Source: Pseudomonas phage BRkr. From it: DNA of 64,000 bases. Under the pieces are notes generated by a model that was not told the origin of the DNA, made no database searches, and was given only the letters and a program-made list of their open reading frames with translations. Of the stretch, positions 27,853 to 64,000 are shown in pieces. Where the stretch lies: sequence record LC765218.1; one strand, written 5' to 3'. The first letter of the stretch is position 1, and each line of letters opens with the position of its first letter. A program made the position numbers and the translations under genes.

Positions 27853-27854
27853 GG

Positions 27855-31144: not shown

Positions 31145-31220
31145 TAACCGTCCAATCTTTTGTATCAATTAACAACAGTAAGGAATCAATAATGAAACCT
31201 GATTAAACCTCTAAGGAGGA

Positions 31221-35002: not shown

Positions 35003-35018
35003 ATAAACACCTACGCCC

Positions 35019-35831
35019 TTACGGCGCCGCCATGATAGTACGAATATGGTGTCGGTTACCTTCAGGGTCATTGAAGTTCCGGGATACCTTCCGCCACTTC
35101 TTCAGTTGCTCATCATAGAGATCGTTCGCTTCAGACCATTCGTAAACTTTGTCACGGAATACACCAAGCTCTTGACCGCCAGATAACTGAGCTTCACCCA
35201 TATTGATGTAAAGTTCATTATAACAGTAGGCTTTAACAGCATATTCAACTAGTTTAGAGAATACAGGGATAGCCTGAGGACGAATATTAAGTAACTCGTC
35301 ATCATTACCCAAGCGACACGATAAATACGCGGCATGTGAAGGCAAGTAAATAAATCTAACCATTACAGTGTTATGGTTAATCAAGTTAATGTATGCAGTC
35401 TGTGCAACAGGTAGTCTTCGCGCAGAGTCTAATACTTTACGTGATTCAGCACCAATAGTCGATTCATTATAGTGCATTGCATATCCAGAGTTCTGATAAC
35501 CTAGGATACCGAAGTGAATACTAAATACCTGGACGATGGGACGCTGTTGGGTGTATTCATCCGGGATATAGTAAATAACAGTGTACGGATCGACATATTC
35601 AGACTTAACAGGAAAGTCCAGTGGAATATAAGTTTTAGTTCCACCGATCAAGTTCATGTCTGCAAAGACACGTGGTTCTAATACCGCCTCTCGAATTCTA
35701 GTTTCAAGAGAAATGACTTCACCGCAAATAGCTGCATTAGATGCAGCTTCTTGTCCAATGAAAACAGACTCTAGAATCTGACGGGGAATTCGGAAAGGTA
35801 AATCTCGAAGTGCATATTGAATAGCATTCAT
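35019..35831 (-). CDS. hypothetical protein (270 aa)
   Basis: Complete ORF co-oriented with the Kelch-like gene. Confidence 0.5.
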
Positions 35832-40796: not shown

Positions 40797-42947
40797 ATGA
40801 ACCAGTGCAGTATGCCTAACCCGTTCATTCTCCCGGTCGATGAATATGCCCGTGACTTGAACATCATTGAAGGATACCTCAATGATCAGGCTCTTTATAT
40901 CTCGGCAATGACGGGAGATGATTTTGAAACCTGTCTGGAGTTTGTAAAAGAACAATCTCGTCCTCAAGGTCAATTTGCCTTGAATAATCCAAAAACCCTG
41001 GTGGTTGATAAAAACCCCCATGGTGACCGTAGTCTTAAAGAAACCACTTTTATGGGTTTTCTTGGACGCGTAAAAAAACAGAATCTTTTGCTGTCGCCGA
41101 GTATGACTGTGTATCTCCCAGAATCACAGCGACAGTCTACACACTCGCAGTATATTGCTGAAGGTGTTGCTAACCGTAAACGTGTAAAGAAAGAACAAAT
41201 GCGGCTGGAAGGTGAAGGTACTCCTGAAGCAGCAGAACTTGCCCAGGTTCGTAAAGGCGAACAAGAGAACTTCAAAATTAACAATAACTCCTATAGTGGA
41301 GCAACCGTATCAGCTGCAACAATTCTGTATTACAAGTCGACTCACTCCAGTTTGACATCGACCTGCCGTACAGCAACCTCGTATGCTAACGCTAACAACG
41401 AGAAGTTCATCACCGGTAACCGTCACTATTATAGTCCGGAAATCACCAAGGCTAATCTTCTGTCGATTGCTAACAACACCGACATGAAGAAGCTGAAAGA
41501 TTGCATCGAACATTTCAACATGCACTATCCGACTCCGGAAGAAGTGGTTGAGATGGTTCTGTATTCGACTGCGCACTATTGGCAGAACCGTGACTACACC
41601 GAACAGATTCGGATGTTGGTTACTGGCTTCACACCACTACAACGTGCTGCTGTTATGTACGTAGGTGATCTGTATCATACTTACAAACATAACAAAACTT
41701 TGATTCGCGGTTTCCTGACTGAGCTTGCTAAAGTAGGTACCGATGAACAAAAGGTTACCAAAGAAGTTTACAACACTTACGATGGTGACCTCCAACTGTT
41801 GGCTAACTTCATCTGCTTTGACTTGGTTAAAGGTCGTAACTACGACAAGCTGAGTAAAGAGTCTCCTGAAGTATTCGACAAGATCTATGCAACAGGTAAG
41901 AACATCTCTGATACGCTGTGGAAATACAAGCGTCTTATTGATGCACTATTGCTGACCAAGAACGTTCCTTCCAGCATTCATGCTTTCCCAACTGCTTATC
42001 GTCGTGCAGCTGTTATTTCCGATACAGACTCGACCATGTTCACGATGCAGTATTGGGTAGAAGAGTTCTTTGGTAAGATCACTTTCACTGACGAAGCCAA
42101 GCGTCTAGTGTTTGCGTTGGTATTCTTGGTGTCGTGTGTTGTAGCACACATTCTAGCGATTCAATCGGCTAACATGGGCGTATCGAAAGAGAAGCTCCGC
42201 CTGCTCGCTATGAAGAACGAATATTACTTCGCGGTACTTTCCCTGACCACACGTTCAAAACACTATTACGCGTCTCAAGATGCACAAGAGGGTGTTATGT
42301 TTGCTAAAGCACGTATGGAAGTTAAAGGTGTCGGCCTTCGAGATTCTAAAGTTCCACCGAAGATTAACAAGACCGCTAAGCGAATGATGGATGATATTAT
42401 TAAATCCATTAAAGCTGAAACACCTTTAGATCTACCAGCAATGTTGAAAGAAGTAGCAGATCTGGAAAGAGACATTATCGCATCTGTACGTTCTGGTAAA
42501 GCTGAATATCTTACCACTGGTAAGTGTAAGAAAATAGATGCATACAAATCTGAAGATAATGCCACTTATGCCAAACATACTTTCTGGAAAGAAGTATGCA
42601 GTCCATCCTTTGGTGAGATTGAAGAACCACCTTATAGTTTCGTAAAGATTTCTGTAACGGTGGACAACAGAACCCGTTTTAACGAATGGGTTGAATCCAT
42701 CGAAGATAAAGGCTTGGCCATGCGTCTAAAACGCTGGGCTATGGAAAATAAGAAGACTGGTATTACCAACTTCCATGTTCCAATGTCTGTTGTAGAAAAC
42801 CGTGGTATCCCAGATGAGATCACACGTGTAGCGGATGTTCGTACGATCATCTCCAACACGATGGGTGTCTTCTATCTGATCTTTGAATCTTTGGGTATCT
42901 TCCTGATCGATAAAGGTAACACTCGTTTGATTTCCGATTTCTATTAA
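40797..42947 (+). CDS. large hypothetical protein (716 aa) with polymerase-like motifs (NSYSG and VISDTDS)
   Basis: KINNNSYSGA resembles family-B motif B (K-x3-NS-x-YG). AAVISDTDSTMF resembles motif C (YGDTDS). The order is consistent with a divergent or split DNA-polymerase palm. This is tentative, and no motif A was seen. Confidence 0.55.
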   Translation: MNQCSMPNPFILPVDEYARDLNIIEGYLNDQALYISAMTGDDFETCLEFVKEQSRPQGQFALNNPKTLVVDKNPHGDRSLKETTFMGFLGRVKKQNLLLSPSMTVYLPESQRQSTHSQYIAEGVANRKRVKKEQMRLEGEGTPEAAELAQVRKGEQENFKINNNSYSGATVSAATILYYKSTHSSLTSTCRTATSYANANNEKFITGNRHYYSPEITKANLLSIANNTDMKKLKDCIEHFNMHYPTPEEVVEMVLYSTAHYWQNRDYTEQIRMLVTGFTPLQRAAVMYVGDLYHTYKHNKTLIRGFLTELAKVGTDEQKVTKEVYNTYDGDLQLLANFICFDLVKGRNYDKLSKESPEVFDKIYATGKNISDTLWKYKRLIDALLLTKNVPSSIHAFPTAYRRAAVISDTDSTMFTMQYWVEEFFGKITFTDEAKRLVFALVFLVSCVVAHILAIQSANMGVSKEKLRLLAMKNEYYFAVLSLTTRSKHYYASQDAQEGVMFAKARMEVKGVGLRDSKVPPKINKTAKRMMDDIIKSIKAETPLDLPAMLKEVADLERDIIASVRSGKAEYLTTGKCKKIDAYKSEDNATYAKHTFWKEVCSPSFGEIEEPPYSFVKISVTVDNRTRFNEWVESIEDKGLAMRLKRWAMENKKTGITNFHVPMSVVENRGIPDEITRVADVRTIISNTMGVFYLIFESLGIFLIDKGNTRLISDFY

Positions 42948-46015: not shown

Positions 46016-47641
46016 ATGATAAATAAAGCATTGAACAGCACGTCTTCTTATAAACTTGCTGTTGTCAATAATTCGCTCAGACGTTTCTTCGAGGAAACGA
46101 TGGGTCGAATTAACACGGATCTTTTCGTGATACATAACCCGAAATTTGTTAAAGCCATGTTCGATGAGATTTTGAAAACCCTTCCGGATTTTCATGCACC
46201 CACGGACGTTATTAATAATCACATCCGTATTCAGTTCCTTAATACTGTTTCTGATCGCGTTAAAGCGATGTCTGAAAATTTCAGTATATTTAAAGAAACA
46301 TATCAGAAAAGTAATACTGGTATTCTTTTTGAAGACTGGTATTACGAGAGACAACGCGAAGGTATCATGTTGGCTCAGTCCGGTAAATACGACGAACTTA
46401 TTGACAAAGTGGAGAATAGTGAGATGCAATCCAAAGACAAGAATATTGACATTAATCTTGCCGAAGCCATTACTGACTTCATCGCCAGCGTTATACCTAC
46501 AGAACATCGCATGGATTTCATTGGGTACAACGGCAAGTTCGTTAAAGAACTGGCAGTTAAAGTAGCTATTGATCTGGATATTCGAAACCTGCCTTCGGAC
46601 AAGATCCCAACTGTTGGGGAAGTACTGAACTTCCTTAATTCCAATTATAGCAAAGCTCTCGATGAACGAGCTATCGTTTATGGGAAATATATTAACTTCT
46701 ATAAACGTTGCTGTGAAGCCGGCCAGATGAATGGGATGCTGTTTGAAGATTGGTTGATCTCTACTGGTCGAATGGAGAAAAAGGAAATCAAACACGATAA
46801 CCCGTACATCGTTGGTCAGTATACTTCGAAAGGTCCGATTAGTTACGCGCCCTCCCAGAAAACGAACCAACTCGGTGATGATTTCATTGCTGAAACTCGC
46901 CTTCGTTCCGTGCCTTCTATTTTCCGTGGTGGTAATCGGATCAATACTGGGTTCGAACATGAAACAGTGAAAAGTTCGTCATACCTGCAAAACCCAGGTC
47001 TCACTGATCTCTACTATGCAGAGAGTGATAATAACGATAATGACAAACATGTAGAAGAGAATACGCATACACTTGATCGGATCTCTACTGCTTTCACGAG
47101 TGGTAAACTTTCCCCAGAGGAAGAAGCGCGTGCTGCTATCCATCGTGAATTTTCTGGTCCTTCTATTGCACAACTTCTTGTTGAAGAGGCTCAGCGTATT
47201 AGTGAAACCGCAAATAAAATTAATAAGGAAGGAGGCAATGTAAAATCGATGAAGATTGCGGCACTTTCGGCAGATAGTATTCGCCGGGGTGAGTATTTCC
47301 GTTCTCCGCTGACTATTGTTTTCTCTTCTATCAAAGATAAGAAGGAACGAGACTGGGTATTCTCTATCGTCAAGGCGCATGTTCGGGATTGTGTTAAAAA
47401 CAACACCATCGATCCAGTGACGGCCATTCAAGGTCTTCGCAATTTGCATTCTTCCTTTATTGAAGATGACAATCGTTTTGATGACACGATGCTCACTCAC
47501 ATGAAAGAGTATTCTTCGGCGATTGCGCAATACGCTGATCAACTCAGTAAAGTTGTGAACATTAAGAGTGCGAAGGAAATCTACAGTAAGTTGAAAGACC
47601 ACTTGGATGATCTTGAAGACCTCTTGTCTGACGAGAAATAA
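46016..47641 (+). CDS. hypothetical protein (541 aa)
   Basis: Complete ORF upstream of chimallin. Confidence 0.55.
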   Translation: MINKALNSTSSYKLAVVNNSLRRFFEETMGRINTDLFVIHNPKFVKAMFDEILKTLPDFHAPTDVINNHIRIQFLNTVSDRVKAMSENFSIFKETYQKSNTGILFEDWYYERQREGIMLAQSGKYDELIDKVENSEMQSKDKNIDINLAEAITDFIASVIPTEHRMDFIGYNGKFVKELAVKVAIDLDIRNLPSDKIPTVGEVLNFLNSNYSKALDERAIVYGKYINFYKRCCEAGQMNGMLFEDWLISTGRMEKKEIKHDNPYIVGQYTSKGPISYAPSQKTNQLGDDFIAETRLRSVPSIFRGGNRINTGFEHETVKSSSYLQNPGLTDLYYAESDNNDNDKHVEENTHTLDRISTAFTSGKLSPEEEARAAIHREFSGPSIAQLLVEEAQRISETANKINKEGGNVKSMKIAALSADSIRRGEYFRSPLTIVFSSIKDKKERDWVFSIVKAHVRDCVKNNTIDPVTAIQGLRNLHSSFIEDDNRFDDTMLTHMKEYSSAIAQYADQLSKVVNIKSAKEIYSKLKDHLDDLEDLLSDEK

Positions 47642-47835
47642 GAAAAGAAATACTGGGGCTAGTTATTTAATACAGGAAATGACCGTGAGGTCCTGACCTG
47701 CTATTTGAGCTATGCCCCAGATCACTGCATACTGAAGTTTGAATCTTAAGGAAACAAATATGTAATACAGTATGTGAAGACTGAATGTCCTCAAATGACC
47801 TTGCTTTTATAGCGGGTCCTCCGGTCTATATTGTA

Positions 47836-47862
47836 TTAAAAAAAATCTGAGATCTATATAAC
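47836..47862 (+). promoter_or_regulatory. early-promoter-like element AAAAAAAATCTGAGATCTATATAAC upstream of chimallin
   Basis: AGATCT subclass. The shell gene is expected to be expressed immediately on infection. Confidence 0.55.
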
Positions 47863-47931
47863 AGTTTTGAATCCAATACACTGTTGGATCTCATTCTTGA
47901 TCAAGAAACGTTACAAACATAGGAACAAATC

Positions 47932-49797
47932 ATGATTCGTGATACCGAAACTCAAAACACTCAAGCTCAAGCCAACAACGCTCCGGCTCAAGCTGCTCCG
48001 CGCGCACAACAGGAAGCTCCTCGTATGCAACAAGCTGCACCTCAAGCTCTGCAAGGCGGTATTTCCGGCCTGCCGAACATGTTTAAACGTTCCGGTCGTA
48101 CTGATGGCGGCGACGCCCGTGCGAGCGAAGCGCTGCAAGTAATGACCCGCGTTGGCAAAGATGCCATCGACCATCAAGACCTGGAAAACGATTTCCAGAT
48201 TCTGCGTTTCGACCGTGATGCCAACCGTGTTGGCTACTCCGCGCTGCTGATCGTCAAGCACGCTGCTGGTGGTAACGGTATCATCGTAGTTCGTCCGCTG
48301 ATCATGCCGAACCCGGCAATCACCCTGCCTCCGCGTCAGGTTACCATTCAGAACGGCATGAGCCACGATCGCTTCGATGTAGACGTCGAAGTACAAGACG
48401 TATTCACCGTTCAGTACTGGAACCGCATCTGCGAATTCGTTCGTCAGACCACCGGTCGTCCGAAGGCTGAAGTACACCCGGCTGGACCGCTGCCGATCCC
48501 GGCTGAATTCGATCTGAAAGACGAAGTCCTGCTGAAAGACATTCTGATCCGTTCCGTCAACCTGTGTGACGACGTTCTGGCTAAGAAAGCTGGCGAGACT
48601 CCGTTCCAGATCGCAATGCTGCGCGGCCAAGATGAAACCCTGGCTGCCAAGATGGACTTCTCCGGTCGTCCGGTAATGGACAGCGTCGGTAACCCGATCA
48701 AGTCCGACATCGTGATCAGCCTGAACCGTACCAAGAAACAAGGTCAACAAGAGAACGAGTTCTACGAAGCAGACACCATGCTTAACCAGGTGTCGGTACA
48801 AGTAACCCTGGAGTACACCCCCACTCCGCAAGCCCAGATGTTCGGTCAACAGACCCAACCGCTGCCGCCGTTCTCCCCGGCGATCCTGGTAACCGACATT
48901 CGTCAGGCCAACTGGATCAAGGCAAACACTCTGGAACTGTACCTCTTCGCTCTGTCGAACGCCTTCCGCGTAACCGCTGGCCAGGCTTGGGCTCGTAAGT
49001 TCCTGCCTCAAGTTGGTAAAGTTAAAGACCTGGGTGACATCGGTGCTCTGGGTTGGCTGTCCAACCTGGGTAAGAAGATCGATACCAAGTCCGATACCTT
49101 CACCGATCAGAACTTCGCTGATCTGATGCTGAGCATGGTTCGTCCGAACCCGTCCTTCCTGATCGATCTGGATCGCATGGGCGACAACGCAGCACTGGAC
49201 GTAATCTTCCTGGATGCCATGGGTGGCCCGAACCAACAGAAAGCTACTGCCGCGATCATTCGCGCTGTACAGAACCTGGTTGGTGGTGGCTTCGAGCGCT
49301 TCTTCGACTTCAACACTCAGCCGATCATTGCATCGACTGGCACTGAAGTGAACAAGGGCTACTACTGGGATGGCGACGAGAAACGTGACCGTCGTGACCT
49401 GGATGCACTGGGTGCACTGAACGCTGCTGAGGGCAACCAACAAGAGTGGATGTCCTGGTACGGTACTCAATGCAACCCGAACATCCATCCGGAACTGCGT
49501 AACAAGCAATCCAAGAACTACGACCGTGCGTTCCTGGGTGCTGTAACCTACACCACTCGTGCACATCGTGGTATCTTCAACCCGAAGTTCATCGAGGGTC
49601 TGGATAAGGCGATTGCTGCTGCTGGTCTGACTGTAGCAATGGACAACGTTGCACAGGTCTTCGGTGCTCAGCGCTTCGTTGGCAACACCATGATCCAAGA
49701 CTTCGCTGTCGGTTCTACCGCACAGGTTGTCAACGGCATGGGCGTTGGTGGCGGCTACCAGATGAACATGGTAGGTTCGGTTGGTACTCTGTACTAA
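47932..49797 (+). CDS. chmA: chimallin, phage-nucleus shell protein (phiKZ gp54-like)
   Basis: 621 aa. N-terminal Q/A/P-rich low-complexity region, about 45 aa, as in chimallin N-terminal segments, and a Gly-rich C-terminal tail. Immediately upstream of the beta-prime N-terminal fragment, matching phiKZ gp54/gp55 synteny. Extreme host-like codon optimisation and an early-type promoter. No direct sequence comparison was possible. Confidence 0.7.
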   Translation: MIRDTETQNTQAQANNAPAQAAPRAQQEAPRMQQAAPQALQGGISGLPNMFKRSGRTDGGDARASEALQVMTRVGKDAIDHQDLENDFQILRFDRDANRVGYSALLIVKHAAGGNGIIVVRPLIMPNPAITLPPRQVTIQNGMSHDRFDVDVEVQDVFTVQYWNRICEFVRQTTGRPKAEVHPAGPLPIPAEFDLKDEVLLKDILIRSVNLCDDVLAKKAGETPFQIAMLRGQDETLAAKMDFSGRPVMDSVGNPIKSDIVISLNRTKKQGQQENEFYEADTMLNQVSVQVTLEYTPTPQAQMFGQQTQPLPPFSPAILVTDIRQANWIKANTLELYLFALSNAFRVTAGQAWARKFLPQVGKVKDLGDIGALGWLSNLGKKIDTKSDTFTDQNFADLMLSMVRPNPSFLIDLDRMGDNAALDVIFLDAMGGPNQQKATAAIIRAVQNLVGGGFERFFDFNTQPIIASTGTEVNKGYYWDGDEKRDRRDLDALGALNAAEGNQQEWMSWYGTQCNPNIHPELRNKQSKNYDRAFLGAVTYTTRAHRGIFNPKFIEGLDKAIAAAGLTVAMDNVAQVFGAQRFVGNTMIQDFAVGSTAQVVNGMGVGGGYQMNMVGSVGTLY

Positions 49798-50128
49798 GAA
49801 ACAACTCCCCCGGTTGATAGGGGTGTCAGAAGGCTGGCATCCCGATTCAAATACTGCGACCCTGGTTCACTTCGGTGATAACGGTTAGGAGTAGGTTCCG
49901 CGAAGTAATCGACTAGTGGGCGTAAAGTCTAGGTCGACCTCTCGCTACACGGGCCGTGAGTGATCACTTAACCGAAAGGAGTTACTCTTGGGTAACGTGT
50001 GATCAAACAACGATGGATGGTAAAAGGTCCTAGTGCCAGAGTGCTACAGAGAAGAGCGGAGGTTAAGCTTTGTAGACGACGCTAGGATCGTGCCAGGCTC
50101 CGTTGGTGGTCCATCGATAGTAGATAAG

Positions 50129-50168
50129 GCGGCTCCTTCGGGAGCCGCTTCTATCTCCTTTTTTTGTC
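50129..50168 (+). terminator. intrinsic terminator
   Basis: GGCGGCTCC-TTCG-GGAGCCGC then ttctatctccTTTTTTTgtcg. It ends a roughly 370-nt untranslated tail after chimallin. Confidence 0.55.
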
Positions 50169-50189
50169 GAGACATAATAGGAAGTAGGT

Positions 50190-51656
50190 ATGGGTCTATA
50201 TGCTCAGGTTGTCAATCATGACGAGATGCTCGCTAACCAAAGAGGTAAAGTAGTATTCGCTAATGACTTTAATACCAGCAATGCTGAACAAAAGGAGGAA
50301 TTCCAACGTTATCTGTTCTCCCATTATCAGGATGCAGATGCGATCGAGAACTCAGCTTCGTGTGACTGTGAGCATATCACAGAAGCATACAAGCTTGGGG
50401 TAATCTGCGATAACTGCGGTACACCAGTAGTAAGCACGAGCAACCGACCCATCGTTCCATCGATGTGGATTCGGGCACCGGAAGGGGTGGATCGTCTGGT
50501 GAGTCCCGAGTTGTGGATTATGCTTTCAGGTTATATGTCGATGAAAGAATTCGACTTCCTGGAGTATCTGACCAACACCCAGTATCAGTACGATTACGAT
50601 ACGATCAGTTCGAAGGAAACAAAACGGAAACTTGACAAGTTGCTGGCTCGCCAGTTCCCGCGTGGACTGAACAACTTCGTTCAGAACTTCGATACGATCT
50701 TCCAGTTCTTGCTCGATAGCAGTATCATCAATACCAACAAAGGTGAGATGGCTGCATTCGTTAACCAGAATAAAGAACATCTGTTCCCGAAGAACATTCC
50801 GATCCCAACTAAACTCTGCTTCGTTGTAGAGTCTACGACCTCGGGTGTTTACATCGATAAGCCGATCGGCGCAGCAATCGATGCGGTACTGACTATTAGT
50901 AGTATCGGTAGTTCGGCAATTCCGCTGAAACCAATCACTGTACAAAACCGTGTAGCTCGTGCATTGAAGCTTCTAGCTATCTTCCACGAGAACTACGACA
51001 AACAACGAATTGCACAGAAACCCGGTTTGGTTCGTCGACATGTACTAGGTGGTCGTCTTAACCTGACTGCACGTGCAGTAATTACTTCTATCAGTGATCC
51101 GCATGATTACGATGAACTTCACATTCCGTGGGGTGTTGGTTGTCAGCTGTTGAAGTATCATCTGATCAACAAGCTCAAACGCAAATTCCGTATGACGACT
51201 CGCCAAGCGAACTCGTTCATTTACGAGAACGTTCTGAAGTACAACGAAGTCATCGATCAACTGTTCAAAGAGATCATCGCGGAATCGAAGTATAAGGGTC
51301 TTCCTTGTGTATTCCACCGCAACCCGACTCTGCAACGTGGTTCGACTCAACAGTTCTTCATCACCGTTATCAAGAATGACATTCGCGATAACTCAATCAG
51401 CATGTCGGTCCTCTGTCTTAAAGCTCCTAATGCTGATTTCGACGGCGATCAGTTGAATTTGACGTTGATGCCCGATAACTATCTGGCTGATGCAACTGAG
51501 CGAATCGCTCCGCATACTTGGGTACTAAGTCCTGATGATCCGCACGAGATCTCGGGTAACTTGGAACTACAAGGTCCGGTAGTAGAGACCATCATCAACT
51601 ATGCTCACGAGGACTATCTTCCGTCCTTGGAAGAATGGTTGGCGAAAGCAGCTTAA
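50190..51656 (+). CDS. multisubunit RNA polymerase beta-prime subunit, N-terminal fragment (phiKZ gp55-like, non-virion RNAP)
   Basis: N-terminal zinc finger CDCEHITEAYKLGVICDNCG and the absolutely conserved catalytic Mg-binding loop NADFDGDQ near residue 415. The protein ends about 70 aa later, as in split phiKZ-type beta-prime. Confidence 0.8.
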   Translation: MGLYAQVVNHDEMLANQRGKVVFANDFNTSNAEQKEEFQRYLFSHYQDADAIENSASCDCEHITEAYKLGVICDNCGTPVVSTSNRPIVPSMWIRAPEGVDRLVSPELWIMLSGYMSMKEFDFLEYLTNTQYQYDYDTISSKETKRKLDKLLARQFPRGLNNFVQNFDTIFQFLLDSSIINTNKGEMAAFVNQNKEHLFPKNIPIPTKLCFVVESTTSGVYIDKPIGAAIDAVLTISSIGSSAIPLKPITVQNRVARALKLLAIFHENYDKQRIAQKPGLVRRHVLGGRLNLTARAVITSISDPHDYDELHIPWGVGCQLLKYHLINKLKRKFRMTTRQANSFIYENVLKYNEVIDQLFKEIIAESKYKGLPCVFHRNPTLQRGSTQQFFITVIKNDIRDNSISMSVLCLKAPNADFDGDQLNLTLMPDNYLADATERIAPHTWVLSPDDPHEISGNLELQGPVVETIINYAHEDYLPSLEEWLAKAA

Positions 51657-51676
51657 CGATCCAAGAGGAGTAATCC

Positions 51677-52291
51677 ATGTTACAACAGGCATACGGCGTC
51701 GATCTGATGGACATCGTCGCTGGTGGCCATCTGGATCAAAATACCACGAACTGGTTGGGTGAACGTTCTCAGACACTTCGTAGTAACCTGAGTTCGATGG
51801 CAACTTCGTTCTTCGATCAAGCACAAAATCTTTACCAGATGATCAGTACCAGCACAGCGGTACAGGCGATGCGGAACATTGTTGCTAAAACGGATAACAG
51901 TTGGATGTCTAACAACATTCATGGACTGTATACGTTAGAGCAATTGCAAACCGCAAATCCGATCATGCAACGATACATCATGGCACAAGAACGCCTGCGT
52001 GGTATGTATCTGAACAACATGGTTGAAGGTTATGCTGATTCGTATGTAAACCATCATGGTGATCGTGTTGGCGAACGCCATTACGATTATCGTCGTGTGA
52101 TGGACGAAGTACTGGTTGTCAATGATGACCACACCGTAGTCAAGCAGTTCTACGAAGAAATCCCAGAAGGTGATAAAGAGCTTTCTCTCTACGAGAAGGT
52201 TGATATTCTCCGTTCATGGAATCTTGTGAATGTTGCTCTAGATGAAAACGAAATGGATCCAACCAGTCCTGTAGGGAACTTGTTGGGTTAA
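51677..52291 (+). CDS. hypothetical protein (204 aa)
   Basis: Complete ORF. Confidence 0.5.
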   Translation: MLQQAYGVDLMDIVAGGHLDQNTTNWLGERSQTLRSNLSSMATSFFDQAQNLYQMISTSTAVQAMRNIVAKTDNSWMSNNIHGLYTLEQLQTANPIMQRYIMAQERLRGMYLNNMVEGYADSYVNHHGDRVGERHYDYRRVMDEVLVVNDDHTVVKQFYEEIPEGDKELSLYEKVDILRSWNLVNVALDENEMDPTSPVGNLLG

Positions 52292-52299
52292 CAACATAA

Positions 52300-52328
52300 A
52301 CGGAGTCCCTTAGGGGACTCCTTTATAA
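52300..52328 (+). terminator. intrinsic terminator
   Basis: GGAGTCCC-TTAG-GGGACTCC then TTTATAACG. Confidence 0.5.
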
Positions 52329-52349
52329 CGAGGATATAAGGAATTTAGT

Positions 52350-52772
52350 ATGATCGAACCGGTGTCGTTTAAGGCCGATCCTAATAAAGCACGTCGCCCT
52401 ATTCTCGATAGTTACGCTCAAAAAATACAAGCTCAAAAAGGGCGTATGAATGTAGTAACTTACTGTGCCAATAACCCCGATAAGATGGTTAAGATACATC
52501 GCGACGGTAATAAATGGTATTGTTGTATTGAACGTGATGGCGTCGAAGTAATTGACAAAAATGAAATAATTGTCATGGGTCCCCCTGGATTCCCAGATAC
52601 GATTCAATTACAGATTTCCAATGACCCTAATGATAAAGTACATTTCGTGGAAATTCATGATGGTCGTATTTGGGAAGCAATCAACGCTATCGGTGGCGGC
52701 TATACCCGAAAAAGGATTGAGTTGCCATTCGGACATCCTTTCTTAGACTTCCTTTTCGTGGAGTCCGATTGA
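52350..52772 (+). CDS. hypothetical protein (140 aa)
   Basis: Complete ORF. Confidence 0.5.
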   Translation: MIEPVSFKADPNKARRPILDSYAQKIQAQKGRMNVVTYCANNPDKMVKIHRDGNKWYCCIERDGVEVIDKNEIIVMGPPGFPDTIQLQISNDPNDKVHFVEIHDGRIWEAINAIGGGYTRKRIELPFGHPFLDFLFVESD

Positions 52773-53841: not shown

Positions 53842-54433
53842 TACAGCTGAAGAAATCCGCGCACGTCATGTAACGCGTGGAATCGATGATTGTCTGAATA
53901 CAATCATCGCAAACGACGAGATGCAGTTGCCCATTATCCTGGAAGACAGGTTTGTGAAAGAGGTCTTACCCCTACTAGTAAGACCATGGGATACTGATAA
54001 CTTAACCCGTTATCGGAAATACGTACTAGAATTGACAAATCCTCTGCGTGTAGCTTCTAATGAAGCAGAGCCGAAGATTCTTTTTACGGTACCAGCTTTG
54101 TATCCCAGGCCAGCTACCTCATGGGCAGCCGATGCTACAACTGCATCTATTTCACATGTAGTAGATTACATTGCTATTGAACGTGAACGGTCTCTGCAAG
54201 ATCTTGAACCGTATATCACGGAATTCTTAAGTAGTGTATCTATTACTACAACCGTGGACAAAAGTGTTCTCATTCCTTTAGCTAACATCCTGGCGATGTA
54301 CAACCGCACTTTCGAAGATGAAAGTGGGAATCCATTGTACACCCTCGCCGGGGGTGTTCCCGTTAAAGGGTCTAATGGTAGTGTACGTCAACAGGCTGAT
54401 ACAAGCTCATTTGACGACGATTATGAAGACTGA
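53822..54433 (+). CDS. hypothetical protein (203 aa)
   Basis: Complete ORF. Confidence 0.5.
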   Translation: MSQYQTDTAEEIRARHVTRGIDDCLNTIIANDEMQLPIILEDRFVKEVLPLLVRPWDTDNLTRYRKYVLELTNPLRVASNEAEPKILFTVPALYPRPATSWAADATTASISHVVDYIAIERERSLQDLEPYITEFLSSVSITTTVDKSVLIPLANILAMYNRTFEDESGNPLYTLAGGVPVKGSNGSVRQQADTSSFDDDYED

Positions 54434-55568
54434 TAAAACAAAGTTCCCCGGTACATTTCGATATATAAGCCTAGGTGATATTCACCTAGGTCATCGGACA
54501 ACTCCTACCTCTCATATTCTGTTAAACTTAGATAAAGTTATTACAGATAAGATGTTAAAGGAACTCGATATGGTCATTATTACTGGTGACCTATTCGACC
54601 GACAGCTTAACTACGGTGATGAATCTGTACATCAGATAAACCGTTGGGCAACAACGTTCATGATGCGCTGCGCTGCAAATAACGTGATGCTCAGAATAGT
54701 TGAAGGTACACCTAGCCATGATAGGGAACAAACCCAGTTCTTTGTAGAGCAAAAAGTAAACGTAAATATTCCAGTCGATCTCCATTACTCTAAGACACTG
54801 TCAATTGAGTATATTGAGAAGCTCGATGCACATTTTCTTTATGTCCCAGATAAATGGCATCCATCAACAGCTGTTACTTTATCGCAGGTAAAAGAACAGA
54901 TGGCTTCACTGGGCATAGAGAAGGTTGACTTTGCTATTATGCATGGTGCATTTAGTTATCAGCTACCTTCCATTGTAGAAGAACCAACTCACGATGAAGA
55001 AGAATACTTAGCTTTAGTAAAACATCAGATCTTAATTGGTCATGTCCACAACATGACTATTAATGATAGAATTTACGCAGCTGGTTCTTTCGATCGAATC
55101 TGTCATGGCGATGAGATCGATAAAGGGTTGTTTCATTTTATCGTTCGTGAGGATGGTAATTTCACGGCGACATTTATAAAGAACAAGAATGCTAAGAAGT
55201 ATGTTACTTTAGAAGTTCACGGTTATGATACTAAACAACTTCTTAATAAAGTAAAAGAAACCTTAGCAGAACTACCCAAGTATTCTGCTATACGACTGCG
55301 TTGTGACCCAATGGACGTAGCTAACGGCGATATCGAAACATTTCGAGTTGAGTATCCTAACTACGAATGGTCTGTCTTGGTGGAAAAAGCTACTAAGAAA
55401 AAGAATAGTGTAGCGACAAGTCTAAAAGAATTTGACATGTCTAAGTTTATCGCTATTACACCAGAGACAATTAGTGATCTTCTTAAAGAAGAGATTTCAA
55501 AAGTCACTGATGATCAGACCATACAAGTCCGTTGTCTTGAAAGGTTGGCACAGTTCGTTAGGAATTAA
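54423..55568 (+). CDS. SbcD/Mre11-like calcineurin-type phosphoesterase (DNA repair or recombination nuclease)
   Basis: Metallophosphatase motifs appear in the canonical order: GDIHLG (I), ITGDLFD (II), EGTPSHD (III, GNHD-like), MHGAF (IV) and IGHVH (V). ATG at 54423 overlaps the upstream stop. 381 aa. Confidence 0.75.
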   Translation: MKTDKTKFPGTFRYISLGDIHLGHRTTPTSHILLNLDKVITDKMLKELDMVIITGDLFDRQLNYGDESVHQINRWATTFMMRCAANNVMLRIVEGTPSHDREQTQFFVEQKVNVNIPVDLHYSKTLSIEYIEKLDAHFLYVPDKWHPSTAVTLSQVKEQMASLGIEKVDFAIMHGAFSYQLPSIVEEPTHDEEEYLALVKHQILIGHVHNMTINDRIYAAGSFDRICHGDEIDKGLFHFIVREDGNFTATFIKNKNAKKYVTLEVHGYDTKQLLNKVKETLAELPKYSAIRLRCDPMDVANGDIETFRVEYPNYEWSVLVEKATKKKNSVATSLKEFDMSKFIAITPETISDLLKEEISKVTDDQTIQVRCLERLAQFVRN

Positions 55569-57352: not shown

Positions 57353-58930
57353 ATGCGCATCGACGTTACTGGGGTACAAGGCAACGGCTTTGTGGAAGTA
57401 ACCACTAGCCATAAAGGAAACGAAATCAAGTGGAGTACAAGGGCTTATAGCAAAGTAAAACTCAATGATCCAACTCGTGTTTTCAAGGAATTTAATGATT
57501 ACCTAGAAAGCTGCGATGAGGCTGATCAAGATCGTATCTGGAACAGCTATGTCAAAATCAACGATCTGTTCAAGATGGACTTCGAACCGGCGCACATCTC
57601 CAGTACGCTGATCCATTACATCCATGAACTGTACTCAGCTCTGCCAATGAACAAACTCCGTCGTTGGCTGTTGACTATTGGTAATCTGCATATTCCACCA
57701 GAGATCCAGAAAACGATCACTGATGAATCGCGCTACACCAAGCGTGAGCAGACTTATCTTCAACATGACTACATCAACCTCGCTACTGTGGCACTTGGTC
57801 TTCGACCGATGGTTCCGATTTGGGGAGAATACATTGATTCGGGTACGGATCAAGAACTCCACAAAGAAAACGAAGTTGTTGGTTTGATTAGCCGTTGTGA
57901 AATTGCTAACTGGCCGCTACTTGAAAAAGATGAAGTGGGTGAAGATGTAGATACTGCATTTGACAAACTGGAAGGGTACGTCAAATTCTGCGTTGAAGAT
58001 GAACCGACTACTTTGGGTAGCCTTTGGCGTGGTATGAGTTCAGTTGAAATTCCAGTACATCTTCGTTCGAAGGTTCTGGTTCGCCGACTGACAATCGTTC
58101 CTCTGAACGATCCAATGTCCCACTCTATCGTAGCTAACACGTTCCGTTACGTACGTAGCAATCTCAATCCTGCCGAGCGTAGTCCAACTGATCGCGTTAA
58201 TGAAAAGCGTCCAGAAGGCGGCGGTGGTGACGACGAAGATAAAACTTCGTTTATTGAGGCACACAAGACGAAAGGTCGAGTTAGCCCAGGTGACATTGAG
58301 GCATACAACATCGATGCGATGGATTATGAGCTACTGGCACAAACGGTAGATCCTACTATCGACATGGAGAAACTGAGAAAATGTATTAGTTGCGTGAGTC
58401 AGGTCGCGAACTTTGAGATCCGTCCTCACCAAGTACTACTGGCACAATGGGTAATGGCAAAAGCTTTCCCGGCGCGTGCTTTCTATCATATCTCCAAACT
58501 GCCAGTCAATACACTGTTGGCAACTACCCAGGCTCTACTGTGGCATTGGGGTTACCTTGATGTAGCTGTGTTCCTACAAGTCGAACCTGTTTATCACGGT
58601 GAACATGGATCGACTAATCAGCTTAGTAATACCCGAAGTGGTTCGAGAATTGCTCAGAAGTATAAGGCACAGCTCGATGAACTCTATCCGCATATGAAAC
58701 TCGCTAAGGTCCCCCAATCGGGAGAGATTCCTAAGCCAGATAACATGGCGGGTATTGCAGTGAATAACTGTAACCAGTCCATCCGCTCCTCTACTTGGAT
58801 CTATCATGGTCCACCTGAGCTGTTCAAGCTTTCTGGACAGATTGCTCAGAACAACATTCTGATTCCACCTCCAAATATCAAGCACACGATCACCGAAGTG
58901 GTTCTACACCTCGCTCAGATCAACCAGTAA
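57353..58930 (+). CDS. hypothetical protein (525 aa)
   Basis: Complete ORF with optimised codons. By position it could correspond to the accessory non-virion RNAP subunit gene of phiKZ. That is only a guess from synteny. Confidence 0.55.
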   Translation: MRIDVTGVQGNGFVEVTTSHKGNEIKWSTRAYSKVKLNDPTRVFKEFNDYLESCDEADQDRIWNSYVKINDLFKMDFEPAHISSTLIHYIHELYSALPMNKLRRWLLTIGNLHIPPEIQKTITDESRYTKREQTYLQHDYINLATVALGLRPMVPIWGEYIDSGTDQELHKENEVVGLISRCEIANWPLLEKDEVGEDVDTAFDKLEGYVKFCVEDEPTTLGSLWRGMSSVEIPVHLRSKVLVRRLTIVPLNDPMSHSIVANTFRYVRSNLNPAERSPTDRVNEKRPEGGGGDDEDKTSFIEAHKTKGRVSPGDIEAYNIDAMDYELLAQTVDPTIDMEKLRKCISCVSQVANFEIRPHQVLLAQWVMAKAFPARAFYHISKLPVNTLLATTQALLWHWGYLDVAVFLQVEPVYHGEHGSTNQLSNTRSGSRIAQKYKAQLDELYPHMKLAKVPQSGEIPKPDNMAGIAVNNCNQSIRSSTWIYHGPPELFKLSGQIAQNNILIPPPNIKHTITEVVLHLAQINQ

Positions 58931-58949: not shown

Positions 58950-60584
58950 ATGCACGGAATCAACATGGGCATTTCCGCTGGTGCAGCTGTCAACTCGAAG
59001 TTGTCCGTACAGAACTTTGTTCTGGTGGAAACCGGCACCTATCAAGAACAGCACATTCGACCTTTCTCGATTAATGCTAACCAAGAAGTAGCTCGTCAAC
59101 TGGAACAAGCTACAAATGGTGGCATGAACCTTCGGGTAAGTGCTGTACAAGAAGTAGCTTCTTCGGTTATCACTCCCCAAGCATCGGTAGAAGGTAGTGT
59201 CGGTATTGCACATGGCTGGCGTTCTCGCCGGTTCCGCTTCTTGATGAAAGTGAATGAGCAACATCCATTCATTGCGGGAACGCTGACTCAACGTATCTTC
59301 TTTGGCTATAGTGACCACGCTGATGCATCTCAGAATTATCTGCCGGATGACATGCGTATCTACTTCAACTCCGAAACTATCATTGCTCAAGCTATTCAAC
59401 AAACCATTCATGGTCCCCAACACGTTGCATCGATCGTAGGTTCCAACCAGATCGTTTCTCCTGTTGACATGATGGGTGGAATGAATGGAATGTTCTCTCG
59501 TGCAACTGCTCACCTGATCCGTCCTGAAGATATCTTTAGTATTGGTCAAACAGCGCATGTGGCACAGAAACTGCAAAGCTCTGGTTTGTTTGACGGAATG
59601 ATCAATCGGTCCATCGACCATCGCACGATGGTTGGTGAAGGAGGAGCATACAAGTATAGCCAACGTCGAGATACCTCTCCAACTCGTTATCTGTCGAATA
59701 CTCTTGGCGCATACCAACATGCTGTCAAAGAGAATGCAATGGAGAACCAAGGGGATGATCTGTTCGGGGCTCCTGATAAAGATGTAATGTTTGGTGAAGC
59801 TGCTGCCCAGTGCAGGAATCAGCAGATCCATACTAACACCTTCTTGGCTGTTCTTAAAGATCATGCCGGGTATATGGAGAATGGCTATATCACTTTCCGT
59901 GATCTCAAGCGGCTCTTCCCTGAATGCGGCACCCAACAGGTTACTCAGTTCTCCATGAACGATGGCCGTTCAATCCGTCGTATTTCTCAGGCAGAAGACT
60001 CCGAAGTTTGGAGCGGTGCAGACTATACCTCCATTGGTGCAAGTCTGTTGGCACAGACCATTCCGTCGATCATGATGGATACCTTCCTCCGCACTTGCTC
60101 GTTTGCTGTAACTAATGGTACTGGTCCGAATAACTATTCGTTCGAGTTCCATCCGCAGAACTCTAAGGCTATCATTGATAACCTGGACATGCGTCAATAC
60201 ATTCTGGAATTCGAACGCCGCCTGGCTATCGATATCCTGAACAACATCACCCGTGGTAACCAGCTGCCGTTCCGTATCTCGATGCATTCGGACTTGGCTG
60301 GTGACTCGATCATCGATATTGCCATCGGTGGTCAGTCGCTGACTCGTTTCATTGCACCGACCTTTACGGATAGTCTGTTCTCCCCGATGATTACCCGTAA
60401 CGAGCAACACCCGACTAACCTGTCTGGTGATATGCTGTGGCTGGTACAAGAAGTAATTCCCAATCCGACTCAACATCAGGCTCTTCAGTCTGTCGGTTAC
60501 CAACATCCGGTAGCTGCACCCATCATGATGCCTAACGCTATTAACCAAGGAGCAAGCAATGTCGTTGATCTTGGACTCGTATAA
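58950..60584 (+). CDS. hypothetical protein (544 aa)
   Basis: Complete ORF with optimised codons. Confidence 0.55.
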   Translation: MHGINMGISAGAAVNSKLSVQNFVLVETGTYQEQHIRPFSINANQEVARQLEQATNGGMNLRVSAVQEVASSVITPQASVEGSVGIAHGWRSRRFRFLMKVNEQHPFIAGTLTQRIFFGYSDHADASQNYLPDDMRIYFNSETIIAQAIQQTIHGPQHVASIVGSNQIVSPVDMMGGMNGMFSRATAHLIRPEDIFSIGQTAHVAQKLQSSGLFDGMINRSIDHRTMVGEGGAYKYSQRRDTSPTRYLSNTLGAYQHAVKENAMENQGDDLFGAPDKDVMFGEAAAQCRNQQIHTNTFLAVLKDHAGYMENGYITFRDLKRLFPECGTQQVTQFSMNDGRSIRRISQAEDSEVWSGADYTSIGASLLAQTIPSIMMDTFLRTCSFAVTNGTGPNNYSFEFHPQNSKAIIDNLDMRQYILEFERRLAIDILNNITRGNQLPFRISMHSDLAGDSIIDIAIGGQSLTRFIAPTFTDSLFSPMITRNEQHPTNLSGDMLWLVQEVIPNPTQHQALQSVGYQHPVAAPIMMPNAINQGASNVVDLGLV

Positions 60585-62356: not shown

Positions 62357-64000
62357 ATGCAAAGTCTACCAAATGCCATCCGTGAAATTAACCTGCGTTT
62401 GCTCGGTCACGCGGCAATTGATCCATATTACGGAACAACCTCCGCGGCACGCGGTGCCATGTTGCTGTCACATATTGGACAATCGCCAGTAGTGGAAGGG
62501 AACGAGCCACGTCGGGTAATGGCGGGTATCGAAATGCGTTATGCTGAACATACCTTCGATATTCGTTTCCCAACGGATTGCGTTGTTCTGAATATTATCC
62601 GTAAGTATCCCACTGGTGTGGGTCGTGGATCTATTCGACATAACCCCGTAACTACGATCGTGTATGAGGAGTATTACGACGAGTTTAAACGAATCGGTGT
62701 TATCCATGTACCAGAGTACCTAAGCTTTCACCAGGACTTTGGATTCAAACTTGAGAAGCAGAAAGATGTATGGAATAACCTTGCCGTTGGTGAGATGTTT
62801 GCCAAAGATACGGTTATTGCACAATCCACAACTGTAAAAGAAAATGGTCTTCTGGGCATGGGCGTTAACGCCACCGTGATGTTCGGTTCTATGCCTGGTA
62901 CTATTGAGGATGGTTTCGTATTCTGCGATGAGTTCCTTCGGGAGAAGATGGCTCCTCGTACTTATACAACCGCTACTGGCGGAGCTGGTAAGAAAGCATT
63001 CTTCCTCAATATGTACGGTGACGATAAAAACATCAAGCTCTTCCCTGATATCGGTGAACGTATTCGTGATGATGGTGTTATCTTCGCTGTTCGAGACCTT
63101 GATGACGATCTCTCGCCAGCTGAAATGACTCCACGTGCATTGCGCACCCTCGATCGTACGTTTGACCGTGCCGTAATTGGTGATCCGGGCGCAATCATTA
63201 AAGACATCAAAGTGTATTGGGATGATCGTCAAAATCCATCTTATACTCCGAGTGGTATGGATGGACAACTGCGGAAGTACTATGACGCACTGGCGTCGTA
63301 TTACCGTGAGATCATCAAGGTATATAAAGGTCTGTCTGCCCGCCGTAAAGATCGCCTCCATATGACCGAGGAATTTCGTCAACTTGTAGTAGAAGCGATG
63401 ATCTATCTGCCTCAAGCCGAAGGTCAACGTAAGCTGACCCGTATGTATCGACTGGATCAACTTGATGAATGGCGTGTTGAAATCACCTATGAATCGATTA
63501 AAGAACCGGGCGGTGCATATAAAGCCACTGATTTCCATGGCGGCAAAGGTGTCGTTTGTAAGATCATGAAGCGAGCAGATATGCCTCGTGACGTGAATGG
63601 TAACGTTGCAGATGTTGTTATCTTTGGCGGCTCGACTATGCGTCGTTCTAACTATGGTCGTATCTATGAACATGGTTTCGGTGCAGCATCTCGCGATCTG
63701 GCTCAACGTCTCCGAGTTGAATGTGGGCTAGAGCGTCATGGTTCCTATGAACTTGACGACGTTGTAAACCATATCAGAAACAATCCTGACTTTATCAAGT
63801 ATGCCTTTAATGAGCTGCTTGATTTCTATGCAATCGTTACTCCGACAATGCATGGAATGGTTAAGGATCACCCGAATCCGATTCAACATGTATCGCATGT
63901 ATTGAGAGATGGTTTTGCGTACTTGTATTCCCCGGTTGATGACCCCGTACATTTGCCGACAGCAAGTAACCAAATCCTTAATTCTCGCTTCTGTCCAACA
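62357..64000 (+). CDS. multisubunit RNA polymerase beta subunit, C-terminal fragment (partial, runs off window end)
   Basis: CAGGAG Shine-Dalgarno then ATG. The frame is open to the end of the window. FHGGKGVVCKIMKRADMPRDVNGNVADVVIFGGSTMRRSNYGRIYEHGFG aligns by eye with E. coli beta [50 protein letters not shown], the catalytic region near the active site. Confidence 0.85.
   Translation, partial: MQSLPNAIREINLRLLGHAAIDPYYGTTSAARGAMLLSHIGQSPVVEGNEPRRVMAGIEMRYAEHTFDIRFPTDCVVLNIIRKYPTGVGRGSIRHNPVTTIVYEEYYDEFKRIGVIHVPEYLSFHQDFGFKLEKQKDVWNNLAVGEMFAKDTVIAQSTTVKENGLLGMGVNATVMFGSMPGTIEDGFVFCDEFLREKMAPRTYTTATGGAGKKAFFLNMYGDDKNIKLFPDIGERIRDDGVIFAVRDLDDDLSPAEMTPRALRTLDRTFDRAVIGDPGAIIKDIKVYWDDRQNPSYTPSGMDGQLRKYYDALASYYREIIKVYKGLSARRKDRLHMTEEFRQLVVEAMIYLPQAEGQRKLTRMYRLDQLDEWRVEITYESIKEPGGAYKATDFHGGKGVVCKIMKRADMPRDVNGNVADVVIFGGSTMRRSNYGRIYEHGFGAASRDLAQRLRVECGLERHGSYELDDVVNHIRNNPDFIKYAFNELLDFYAIVTPTMHGMVKDHPNPIQHVSHVLRDGFAYLYSPVDDPVHLPTASNQILNSRFCPT

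Follow-up and report, generated by a model that had tools for sequence, protein, structure and literature searches.

Chimallin and split RNA polymerase beta-prime genes flank a conserved, predicted structured RNA in Pseudomonas phage BRkr

The two genes and their relatives

Here, we describe a region of about 4 kb in Pseudomonas phage BRkr, located within a 64,000-nucleotide (nt) stretch of sequence record LC765218.1 that we refer to as the window. Two genes lie in this region, both on the + strand. The first (47932-49797) encodes chimallin, the protein of the phage nuclear shell, and the second (50190-51656) encodes an N-terminal fragment of the beta-prime subunit of the non-virion RNA polymerase. 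A spacer of 392 nt (49798-50189) lies between them. An initial annotation, made from the sequence of the window alone, had proposed both genes at these positions, and open reading frames (ORFs) of 621 and 488 amino acids (aa), respectively, are indeed found there. It had also described the second gene as directly following the first; the gene order stands, but the adjacency does not, given the spacer in between. We interpret the region as the “nucleus core” transcription unit that is conserved in jumbo phages of the phiKZ group; the phage itself belongs to the Chimalliviridae, genus Pawinskivirus.

Over the 4 kb, nucleotide identity is 99.5-99.6% to Pseudomonas phages PA1C, HHBS36_1, phiLBG22, and PS119XW, all of the genus Pawinskivirus. 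A “nuclear shell protein” is already annotated in HHBS36_1 and in the RefSeq record of PS119XW, and the spacer is devoid of any annotation in the records of all four phages. The arrangement had been likened to that of phiKZ gp54/gp55, and this comparison holds for the family as a whole: the shell gene is followed by the beta-prime N-terminal gene in phiKZ, phiPA3, Phabio, 201phi2-1, RVTF4, Psa21, Noxifer, Escherichia coli phage Goslar, and Erwinia phage RAY. For phiKZ gp54 (ChmA)/gp55 and phiPA3 gp53 (PhuN)/gp54, the likeness extends to the same two proteins, the same order and strand, an early motif, and a terminator before the polymerase gene. phiKZ also has the spacer RNA described below in common with the window (84-85% identity), but it differs in that its beta-prime gene is split by a group I intron with an HNH endonuclease, whereas the gene in the window is uninterrupted. 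phiPA3 differs in having a 515-nt spacer that is only partly homologous.

What does this locus add to our understanding of the family? The shell protein, the tubulin PhuZ, and the split non-virion polymerase are defining, well-studied features of the Chimalliviridae. The proposal that the phage builds a nucleus and transcribes with its own split, multi-subunit polymerase is supported by sequence and profile matches, and it is probably correct; it is also already known, and adds nothing new. The value of the locus instead lies in the details around the genes, which are a candidate structured RNA that has apparently gone undescribed and a conserved, attenuator-like layout.

The chimallin gene

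The 621-aa protein (68.2 kDa) is, judged by its matches to profiles and solved chains, a full-length chimallin (ChmA/PhuN). It covers the chimallin family Pfam PF25677 from end to end (residues 1-621 against profile positions 1-627 of 627; 1101.8 bits, E = 0, cut-off 27), and it matches PHROG 4795, “nuclear shell protein” (E = 1e-198). Three solved shell proteins are also matched: PhuN of phiPA3 (PDB 8fne, E = 7e-261), chimallin of 201phi2-1 (PDB 7sqq, E = 7e-204), and chimallin of Goslar (PDB 7sqt, E = 4e-15). Hence, at the level of profiles and sequences, the similarity to chimallin structures is unambiguous. Identity to the window protein is 66% for the chimallin of phiPA3, 56% for that of Phabio, 53% for that of 201phi2-1, and 48.5% for that of phiKZ.

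The published anatomy of the 201phi2-1 chimallin (PMC9365700) was transferred onto the 621-aa protein by alignment, and all of the published segments are present in order. These are a disordered, Q/A/P-rich N-tail (residues 1-44), the NTS (residues 45-58), the NTD (residues 59-223; 53% identity to the solved chimallin, with at most 5 gaps), the GNAT-like CTD (residues 224-571; 57% identity, likewise with at most 5 gaps), CTS1 (residues 580-601), in which the QRFxGN start is kept and 10 of the 22 residues are identical, a Gly-rich linker (residues 602-611), and CTS2 (residues 612-621), which ends in Tyr, like that of 201phi2-1. The architecture on which the initial annotation had based its identification is thus borne out, including the composition of the two ends: Gln, Ala, and Pro make up 56% of residues 1-45, and Gly makes up 27% of the last 30 residues. 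According to the alignment, the Gly-rich tail is the flexible linker together with CTS2. The chimallin core has been described as an N-terminal alpha/beta domain and a GNAT-like C-terminal domain (Laughlin 2022, PMC9365700), and the 53-66% identity to solved chains suggests that the 621-aa protein has the same two-domain fold. In infected cells, the homologues of phiKZ, phiPA3, 201phi2-1, and Goslar have been shown to assemble the shell around a nucleus-like compartment. By analogy, the chimallin encoded in the window would be expected to self-assemble into such a shell.

The shell gene had further been called the most codon-optimized gene in the window. This claim holds by proxy only, in that the gene has the highest GC content (0.551) and the highest GC content at third codon positions (GC3; 0.616) among credible window genes. 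Because both values are the highest in the window, adaptation to a GC-rich host would fit. Just upstream of the shell gene is a 541-aa ORF (46016-47641, + strand) that has neither a Pfam nor a PHROG match. At the same position, phiKZ has only the 121-aa gp53, and in phiPA3, RVTF4, and Psa21 this place is taken by ORFs comparable in length to that in the window.

The beta-prime gene and its intron site

The second gene is preceded by a Shine-Dalgarno sequence, AGGAAG, at 50179-50184 (+ strand). Its 488-aa product is, by full-length colinear alignment, a split beta-prime N-terminal fragment of the phiKZ gp55 type, encoded here by an intron-less allele. Residues 1-485 align with residues 21-506 of gp55 in the solved phiKZ non-virion polymerase (PDB 7ogp_A, E = 1.8e-239). 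In addition, the fragment matches the Pfam domain RNA_pol_Rpb1_2 (E = 5.7e-10, 40.1 bits, cut-off 25.3) and PHROG 2987 (E = 1e-188), and many bacterial beta-prime chains align to it locally. As had been noted from the translation, the fragment carries both a zinc finger and the catalytic loop. The zinc-binding motif, CDC-x12-CDNC (CxCx12CxxC), is at aa 58-76 (nt 50361-50417, + strand), and its spacing is presumably that of the E. coli beta-prime zinc-binding domain. The Mg-binding loop, NADFDGD, is at aa 414-420 (nt 51429-51449, + strand), in the Rpb1 domain-2/double-psi beta-barrel region. The protein ends shortly past this loop, such that it is 488 aa long, as compared to ~1400 aa for bacterial beta-prime.

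The codons for the catalytic loop are also the site at which related phages carry introns. Blastn break-points against PS119XW and phiKZ show that the junction 51449/51450 in the window is where these sister phages carry a group I intron, and that the site is empty in the window. In the 99.5%-identical phage PS119XW, the beta-prime gene contains a group I intron of ~368 nt, lacking an ORF, directly after the NADFDGD codons. phiLBG22 is longer by a similar amount within the 4-kb stretch, presumably because of the same intron. In phiKZ, a group I intron with an HNH endonuclease occupies the same NADFDGD site. The introns of PS119XW and phiKZ match Rfam RF00028 with 75.7 and 75.6 bits, respectively, and in Goslar a group I intron and an HNH-type gene are annotated just past the beta-prime ORF. 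These intron and HNH insertions across sister phages suggest that the catalytic-site codons are a recurrent target for intron homing. Such introns are mobile between these phages (preprint 10.1101/2023.09.30.560319).

The early promoter and 5′ leader

An early promoter of phiKZ-type phages, which is used by the virion RNA polymerase, is recognizable by an AT-rich motif in which a TATATTAC-like box is preceded by an A/T-run, a few tens of nucleotides before an early gene. The initial annotation had reported such an element ahead of the shell gene, and it is both present and conserved in relatives. In the window, reading of the sequence and alignment place the motif at 47838-47862 (+ strand). 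This stretch, AAAAAAAATCTGAGATCTATATAAC, is 69 nt ahead of the chimallin ATG, and consists of a run of eight A followed by AGATCTATATAAC at 47850-47862. We compared the promoter regions of phiKZ, phiPA3, Phabio, 201phi2-1, RVTF4, Psa21, Noxifer, Goslar, and RAY. Eight of these nine relatives, including Goslar and RAY, have an A-run followed by YTATATNAC 64-83 nt ahead of the shell start codon; in the ninth, phiPA3, the same early motif is seen in the alignment of promoter regions. For the phiKZ gene, PHIKZ054, differential RNA sequencing has identified a primary start site with an early motif and a secondary start site with a middle motif (PMC8244752).

A scan of the window for the early-like motif (A-run ... 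ATCTATATWAY) found eight copies, at 23274, 27022, 28171, 35941, 45963, 47852, 57310, and 62314. All are on the + strand, and each is a few tens of nucleotides before an ORF start. The copies at 57310 and 62314 precede genes for homologues of the phiKZ polymerase subunits gp68 and gp71-73. A looser 10-mer is not significant in the window by count alone (9 seen, 5.6 expected). The same scan found no early motif between 47852 and 57310, and hence none in the spacer.

The 5′ untranslated region (UTR) of chimallin (47868-47907, + strand) is predicted by RNAfold to contain a hairpin of variable sequence (47868-47893), which is followed by a 14-nt palindrome, TTCTTGATCAAGAA (47894-47907). The core of the palindrome, CTTGATCAAG, is invariant in seven genera of Pseudomonas phages, and its outer positions are swapped in Phabio (AACTTGATCAAGTT). 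The palindrome may form an RNA hairpin with GAUC as its loop or serve as a protein-binding site; both roles are putative.

The terminator before the beta-prime gene

At its 3′ end, the spacer contains a predicted intrinsic terminator or attenuator (50123-50166, + strand). By sequence and fold, it is a hairpin, GGCGGCUCC-UUCG-GGAGCCGCU, followed by UAUCUCC and seven U. The terminator is nearly invariant across three genera in the spacer alignment. It ends ~25 nt ahead of the beta-prime start codon, and therefore looks like an attenuator. A GC hairpin with a T-run lies no more than ~40 nt from the beta-prime start codon in phiKZ, phiPA3, phiHQ, Phabio, Psa21, RVTF4, and Noxifer. Only in 201phi2-1 is the position different, owing to the insertion of an extra gene downstream of the terminator. 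In Noxifer, RVTF4, Goslar, and RAY, the spacers are merely 84-105 nt long, which suggests that the terminator is the ancestral content of the spacer.

How is the beta-prime gene expressed behind a terminator? Read-through is the probable route, because there is no promoter motif between the two genes. A similar picture has been described for 201phi2-1, for which a promoter was not found for the beta-prime gene (gp107); the sole early-promoter match is ~3 kb upstream, and is the promoter of the shell gene (PMC11512511). In phiKZ, Gp55 is an early protein that appears at ~10 min and whose level drops after 20 min (PMC10612078).

A structured RNA in the spacer

Between the shell stop codon and the terminator is an insert of ~330 nt (49805-50118) that is predicted to form a structured RNA of three domains on the sense strand. 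Spacer identity between the window and phiKZ amounts to 84%, as compared to 57% for the chimallin coding sequence and 64% for the gp55 coding sequence. Four-fold degenerate sites in these genes are essentially saturated, with 43% (chimallin) and 31% (gp55) identical between the window and phiKZ. No other nucleotide island that the 64-kb window shares with phiKZ is as long or as well conserved as the spacer, and the insert is the only part of the region that is recovered by megablast against distant phiKZ-group phages. Relative to shuffled controls, the spacer has a folding z-score of -4.9 on the + strand and -1.3 on the - strand. It is also noncoding: substitutions are spread evenly over the three codon phases (19/20/18), indels are 1-2 nt long, and there are at least five stop codons in every forward frame.

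An RNAalifold consensus of nine sequences has 116 base pairs, arranged as three domains plus the terminator. In this consensus, 98.8% of cells are paired, as compared to 34-43% when partners are shifted, and there are 7 fully compensated pairs, as compared to 0-1 in the shifted controls. When phiPA3 is included, there are 11 compensated pairs in domain 1 (0-1 in shifted controls) and 7 in domains 2-3, although these counts come from model-guided alignments that are biased towards the model. About 10 G-U pairs are invariant, and would be C-A mismatches on the antisense strand. The compensated substitutions in helices point to selection for structure. The spacer RNA is therefore conserved, covarying, strand-specific, and noncoding.

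Domain 1 (49808-49955, + strand) is predicted to be a multi-branch structure, with three hairpin arms and a long-range closing helix. A covariance model of this domain (R1) finds the phiPA3 copy with E = 8e-9. Domain 2 (49962-50004, + strand) is predicted to be a three-way hairpin (GAUCAC / CC-GAAA-GG / GUUACU...GGUAAC / GUGAUC). It is the most widely kept module, being found in Pawinskivirus, Phikzvirus, phiHQ, and phiPA3, and it has a compensated change in phiPA3, from GAUCAC/GUGAUC to AACCAC/GUGGUU. Domain 3 (50009-50118, + strand) is predicted to be a closed domain that comprises a long, irregular hairpin and a short hairpin, with compensated pairs in helices 12 and 13. Two of its loops, CGGAG and CUCCG, are complementary and may contact each other; both are invariant, so that the contact has no covariation to support it.

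Does the RNA belong to a known class? The covariance models of Rfam 15, among them those for riboswitches, ribozymes, 6S, RNase P, and tmRNA, gave no match at E ≤ 1 over 47600-52400 or at the phiKZ, PS119XW, and phiPA3 loci. For the spacer alone at E ≤ 10, there were only matches driven by the terminator, which scored 9-20 bits against cut-offs of 42-68. A group I intron (RF00028) was rejected as an identity for the spacer, which has no match to this model even at E = 10; the model hits only the true introns. No tRNA or tmRNA was found in the spacer by ARAGORN. The beta-prime introns resemble the spacer in size (~300-370 nt), in being rich in GNRA and UUCG loops, in lying in the same 2-kb neighborhood, and in being mobile between phages. 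However, they score ~75 bits with RF00028 and sit within a gene, whereas the spacer RNA has no match and sits between genes. The spacer RNA lacks annotation in almost all deposited genomes, and we found no description of an RNA at the gp54/gp55 spacer in the literature searched, the scope of which excluded the original phiKZ transcriptome paper (Ceyssens 2014) and supplementary tables of start and end sites. Because these sources fall outside that scope, it is probable, not certain, that the RNA is new to science.

Distribution and evolution of the spacer insert

Full-length copies of the insert are found only in Pawinskivirus and Phikzvirus. The copy in phiPA3 is colinear but diverged: the outer helices of domain 1 are recognizable, domain 2 is kept, and the terminator is the same, but the third domain is different, with domain 3 not recognizable, and an insertion is also present. 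Searches with nhmmer and two covariance models found no insert in Phabio, 201phi2-1, RVTF4, Psa21, or Noxifer, such that all of the carriers infect Pseudomonas aeruginosa. The insert is single-copy per genome and always at the same site. Indeed, nhmmer and covariance models found no second copy in the rest of the window, and none in the initial 41 kb of PS119XW. Exact-pattern scans of IMG/VR recovered phiPA3 and PA7 only. Gapped-motif scans gave nine hits in metagenomes and six in bacterial genomes, all of which are chance occurrences in unrelated coding sequence (~8 are expected by chance in genomes); outside the motifs used as seeds, they bear no resemblance to the insert. A plasmid collection contained no match to the insert.

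Two observations indicate that parts of the insert can be exchanged. First, in phiHQ, which is otherwise 99% identical, an unrelated segment of ~300 nt takes the place of domain 1. Its 3′ half resembles part of the shell/beta-prime spacer of the P. syringae phage Psa21 (73% identity; MK552327 44107-44251) and also, with 82% identity across 87 nt, a site without annotation in the Ralstonia jumbo phage RP13 (LC554890 141804-141891). The replacement segment thus appears to be a second exchangeable noncoding module. Second, one helix of domain 3 (window ~50025-50090) occurs in two variants within Phikzvirus that are ~9 positions apart, including a compensated pair. SL2, PA7, and T2P have the variant that is found in Pawinskivirus, and phiKZ, LC, PA02, and NK1 carry the other. 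The shared variant may be either the ancestral state or the product of recombination between genera.

How might the locus work?

The best explanation for the locus, in which we have high confidence, is a nucleus-core operon composed of an early promoter, the chimallin gene, a structured spacer, an attenuator, and the gene for the beta-prime fragment. In this model, the virion polymerase would initiate at the early promoter (~47838-47862) and drive transcription of a structured leader of ~65 nt and the chimallin gene. Transcription would then cross the 392-nt spacer, encountering the ~330-nt, three-domain RNA and then the intrinsic terminator. The next gene would supply the catalytic, N-terminal beta-prime fragment of the split, five-subunit non-virion polymerase, with expression occurring by terminator read-through. 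Acting as an attenuator, the terminator would yield a high level of shell protein and a low level of polymerase from a single early promoter, and the early and middle polymerases may not read through to the same extent. Co-transcription of the shell and beta-prime genes and attenuation are suggested by the arrangement of motifs and genes.

There is a bacterial precedent for this logic. In the E. coli rplJL-rpoBC operon, a gene with very high expression precedes a long intergenic region, which is structured and contains a partial terminator; downstream is a promoterless gene for a polymerase subunit that is needed in far smaller amounts. The phage layout may follow the same logic as the rplJL-rpoBC attenuator. 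However, there is no kinship in sequence or structure, and the putative phage attenuator would be transcribed by the phage’s own polymerases. Across the family, the layout of early promoter, structured leader, shell gene, terminator, and promoterless polymerase gene is suggestive of much shell protein and little polymerase.

What is the function of the structured RNA? It would be carried in the 3′ UTR of every chimallin mRNA, where it would most likely act in cis, affecting either the stability of the chimallin mRNA or the level of read-through. A cis-acting 3′-UTR/attenuator module is accordingly the reading that we favor. For the more specific proposition that the insert at 49805-50118 represents a modular family of structured RNAs, specific to jumbo phages of P. 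aeruginosa (Phikzvirus, Pawinskivirus, and a divergent phiPA3), that is under tighter constraint than the flanking essential genes, is borne on the most abundant early mRNA, and has a host-specific role, we consider the case to be evenly balanced. Candidate host-specific roles are setting the ratio of shell to polymerase, shielding an exposed chimallin mRNA, and titrating a host RNA-binding or RNA-targeting factor. phiKZ is the best-studied model of the group, and the shell mRNA of phiKZ and of its relatives on P. aeruginosa would carry a large, conserved, structured RNA with no Rfam match. To our knowledge, the mRNAs of jumbo phages are the only phage nucleic acids that are exposed to cytoplasmic defenses. 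Phages like phiKZ are used in therapy. For both of these reasons, the spacer RNA is a concrete, testable lead.

Several observations weigh against our best explanation for the locus. First, the distribution of the insert does not match the protein tree: by chimallin identity, phiPA3, Phabio, and 201phi2-1 are each closer to the window than phiKZ is, and silent sites give the same order, yet the spacer of phiPA3 is more divergent than that of phiKZ. This incongruence fits lateral exchange at least as well as it fits vertical constraint. Second, the insert is accessory, because the phages with spacers of 84-105 nt manage without it, and phiHQ lacks domain 1. Third, the diversity of the sequences is low (~three lineages), and the consensus structure and the pair counts are drawn from the same alignment. 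Fourth, unpaired positions are also strongly conserved (substitution rate of 0.18, as compared to 0.10 for paired positions), which a purely cis-regulatory role leaves unexplained.

Alternative explanations for the spacer RNA

The conservation of unpaired positions leads to the main rival explanation, which is that the spacer RNA is cut from the chimallin transcript to give a stable noncoding RNA (ncRNA) of ~350 nt that acts in trans. We view this as a tentative possibility. A trans-acting RNA could be a decoy or sponge for an RNA-binding protein of P. aeruginosa, for an RNase, or for an RNA-targeting defense system, or it could be a scaffold for phage proteins. Unpaired positions are nearly as constrained as paired ones, and the UAUCUCC-U7 tail of the terminator is nearly invariant in three genera; together, these features suggest sequence-specific contacts that go beyond stability. 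The element is also confined to three genera that infect P. aeruginosa. With a processed, trans-acting RNA, it would be easier than with a cis-acting module to account for why unpaired bases are constrained and why the element is restricted to P. aeruginosa phages. There is precedent in phiKZ for an ncRNA derived from a 3′ UTR, at PHIKZ298 (PMC8545117). This RNA, and other small RNAs of phiKZ and 201phi2-1, likewise contain a terminator, derive from abundant mRNAs, and are conserved across genera (PMC8545117, PMC11512511). They differ from the spacer element in being ~100-250 nt long, with two stem-loops, and in coming from other loci, whereas the spacer element is ~370 nt long with three predicted multi-helix domains. 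Moreover, Grad-seq of phiKZ listed only two ncRNA candidates, neither of which is at this locus (PMC8545117), and the spacer RNA has no similarity to Rfam families. As a specific case, a sponge for an RsmA-type protein was considered and rejected: there are five GGA motifs in the 392 nt, which is near the chance expectation and not an enrichment.

The next rival explanation is that the insert is a selfish or neutral cassette that has recently recombined between jumbo phages co-infecting P. aeruginosa, in which case the high identity would reflect transfer and not function. We consider this doubtful. The pattern of exchange speaks for such a cassette: the spacer is 85% identical to that of phiKZ yet fragmentary in the closer relative phiPA3; modules have been swapped, with domain 1 replaced in phiHQ and an insertion and another third domain in phiPA3; and the domain 3 helix variant of Pawinskivirus recurs in SL2, PA7, and T2P, and not in phiKZ, LC, PA02, or NK1. 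Introns are, moreover, mobile between these phages at the neighboring beta-prime gene. Yet high identity sets in at the stop codon of one gene and ends at the start codon of the other, as is predicted by selection on a noncoding segment, and substitutions in the helices are compensated. The insert is also single-copy at one site, with no copies in the metagenomes, bacterial genomes, or plasmids scanned.

The two remaining explanations are both unlikely. It is highly improbable that the spacer acts as DNA, for example in the initiation of replication, in packaging, or in binding a protein. Nucleotide conservation does exceed what secondary structure needs, and the spacer adjoins a cluster of replication and transcription genes; however, a DNA-level element is hard to reconcile with folding that is strand-asymmetric, and the ~10 invariant G-U pairs, the compensatory changes in helices, and the location of the segment between a stop codon and a terminator, within a transcription unit, likewise argue for RNA. 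Least probable by far is that the spacer encodes small proteins, for even though ORFs of 35-62 aa are annotated in HPP-Temi (two “hypothetical proteins”) and other records, and a 62-aa GTG ORF is found at 50033-50221 in the window, this ORF is broken by stop codons in phiKZ, and the absence of codon periodicity, the short indels, and the stop codons in every forward frame led us to reject a coding function.

Companion genes in the window

Other components of the nucleus and of the non-virion polymerase are encoded in the window, all on the + strand. PhuZ, which the initial annotation had listed alongside the shell protein, is encoded by a tubulin gene at 29483-30436, which matches PDB 3r4v/3j5v (E = 2e-90) and the PhuZ of phiKZ (PDB 3zbp, E = 6e-63), and is annotated as “tubulin PhuZ” in PS119XW. 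The beta fragment that had been proposed at 62357 is likewise present. It is a beta-type subunit of the non-virion polymerase, encoded at 62357-64000 and running off the window, and is a homologue of phiKZ gp71-73 (PDB 7ogp_C, E = 5.2e-241) with a match to Pfam RNA_pol_Rpb2_6 and the early motif at 62314. Between the PhuZ/shell block and this gene are homologues, identified by tblastn, of phiKZ gp68, gp69, and gp70. The gp68 homologue (57353-58930; 57% identity over 525 aa to PHIKZ068) follows the early motif at 57310, and gp68 has been reported to be the fifth subunit of the phiKZ non-virion polymerase. The homologue of gp69 (PicA) is at 58950-60584 (50% identity over 526 aa to PHIKZ069), and PicA has been reported to be a nuclear protein importer. 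The partner subunits seen within the window are therefore the gp68 and gp71-73 homologues; homologues of gp74 and gp123 would fall outside it.

Two further genes flank the nucleus/polymerase block, in the same order as in phiKZ (gp50, gp65). One encodes a divergent family B DNA polymerase (40797-42947, + strand; Pfam PF20286, 1043 bits), and the other encodes an SbcD-like nuclease subunit (54318-55568, + strand; PHROG 100). The window also contains a second syntenic noncoding island shared with phiKZ, at 27853-28175. Its core (27949-28068) is 81% identical over 120 nt to phiKZ 31131-31248, between PHIKZ037 and PHIKZ038. The intergenic region as a whole folds with z = -6.1 and has several GC hairpins. 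Lastly, a gene on the - strand (34085-35071) encodes a 328-aa Kelch-repeat (beta-propeller) protein (for example, Pfam Kelch_6, E = 6e-24), which is unusual for a phage protein.

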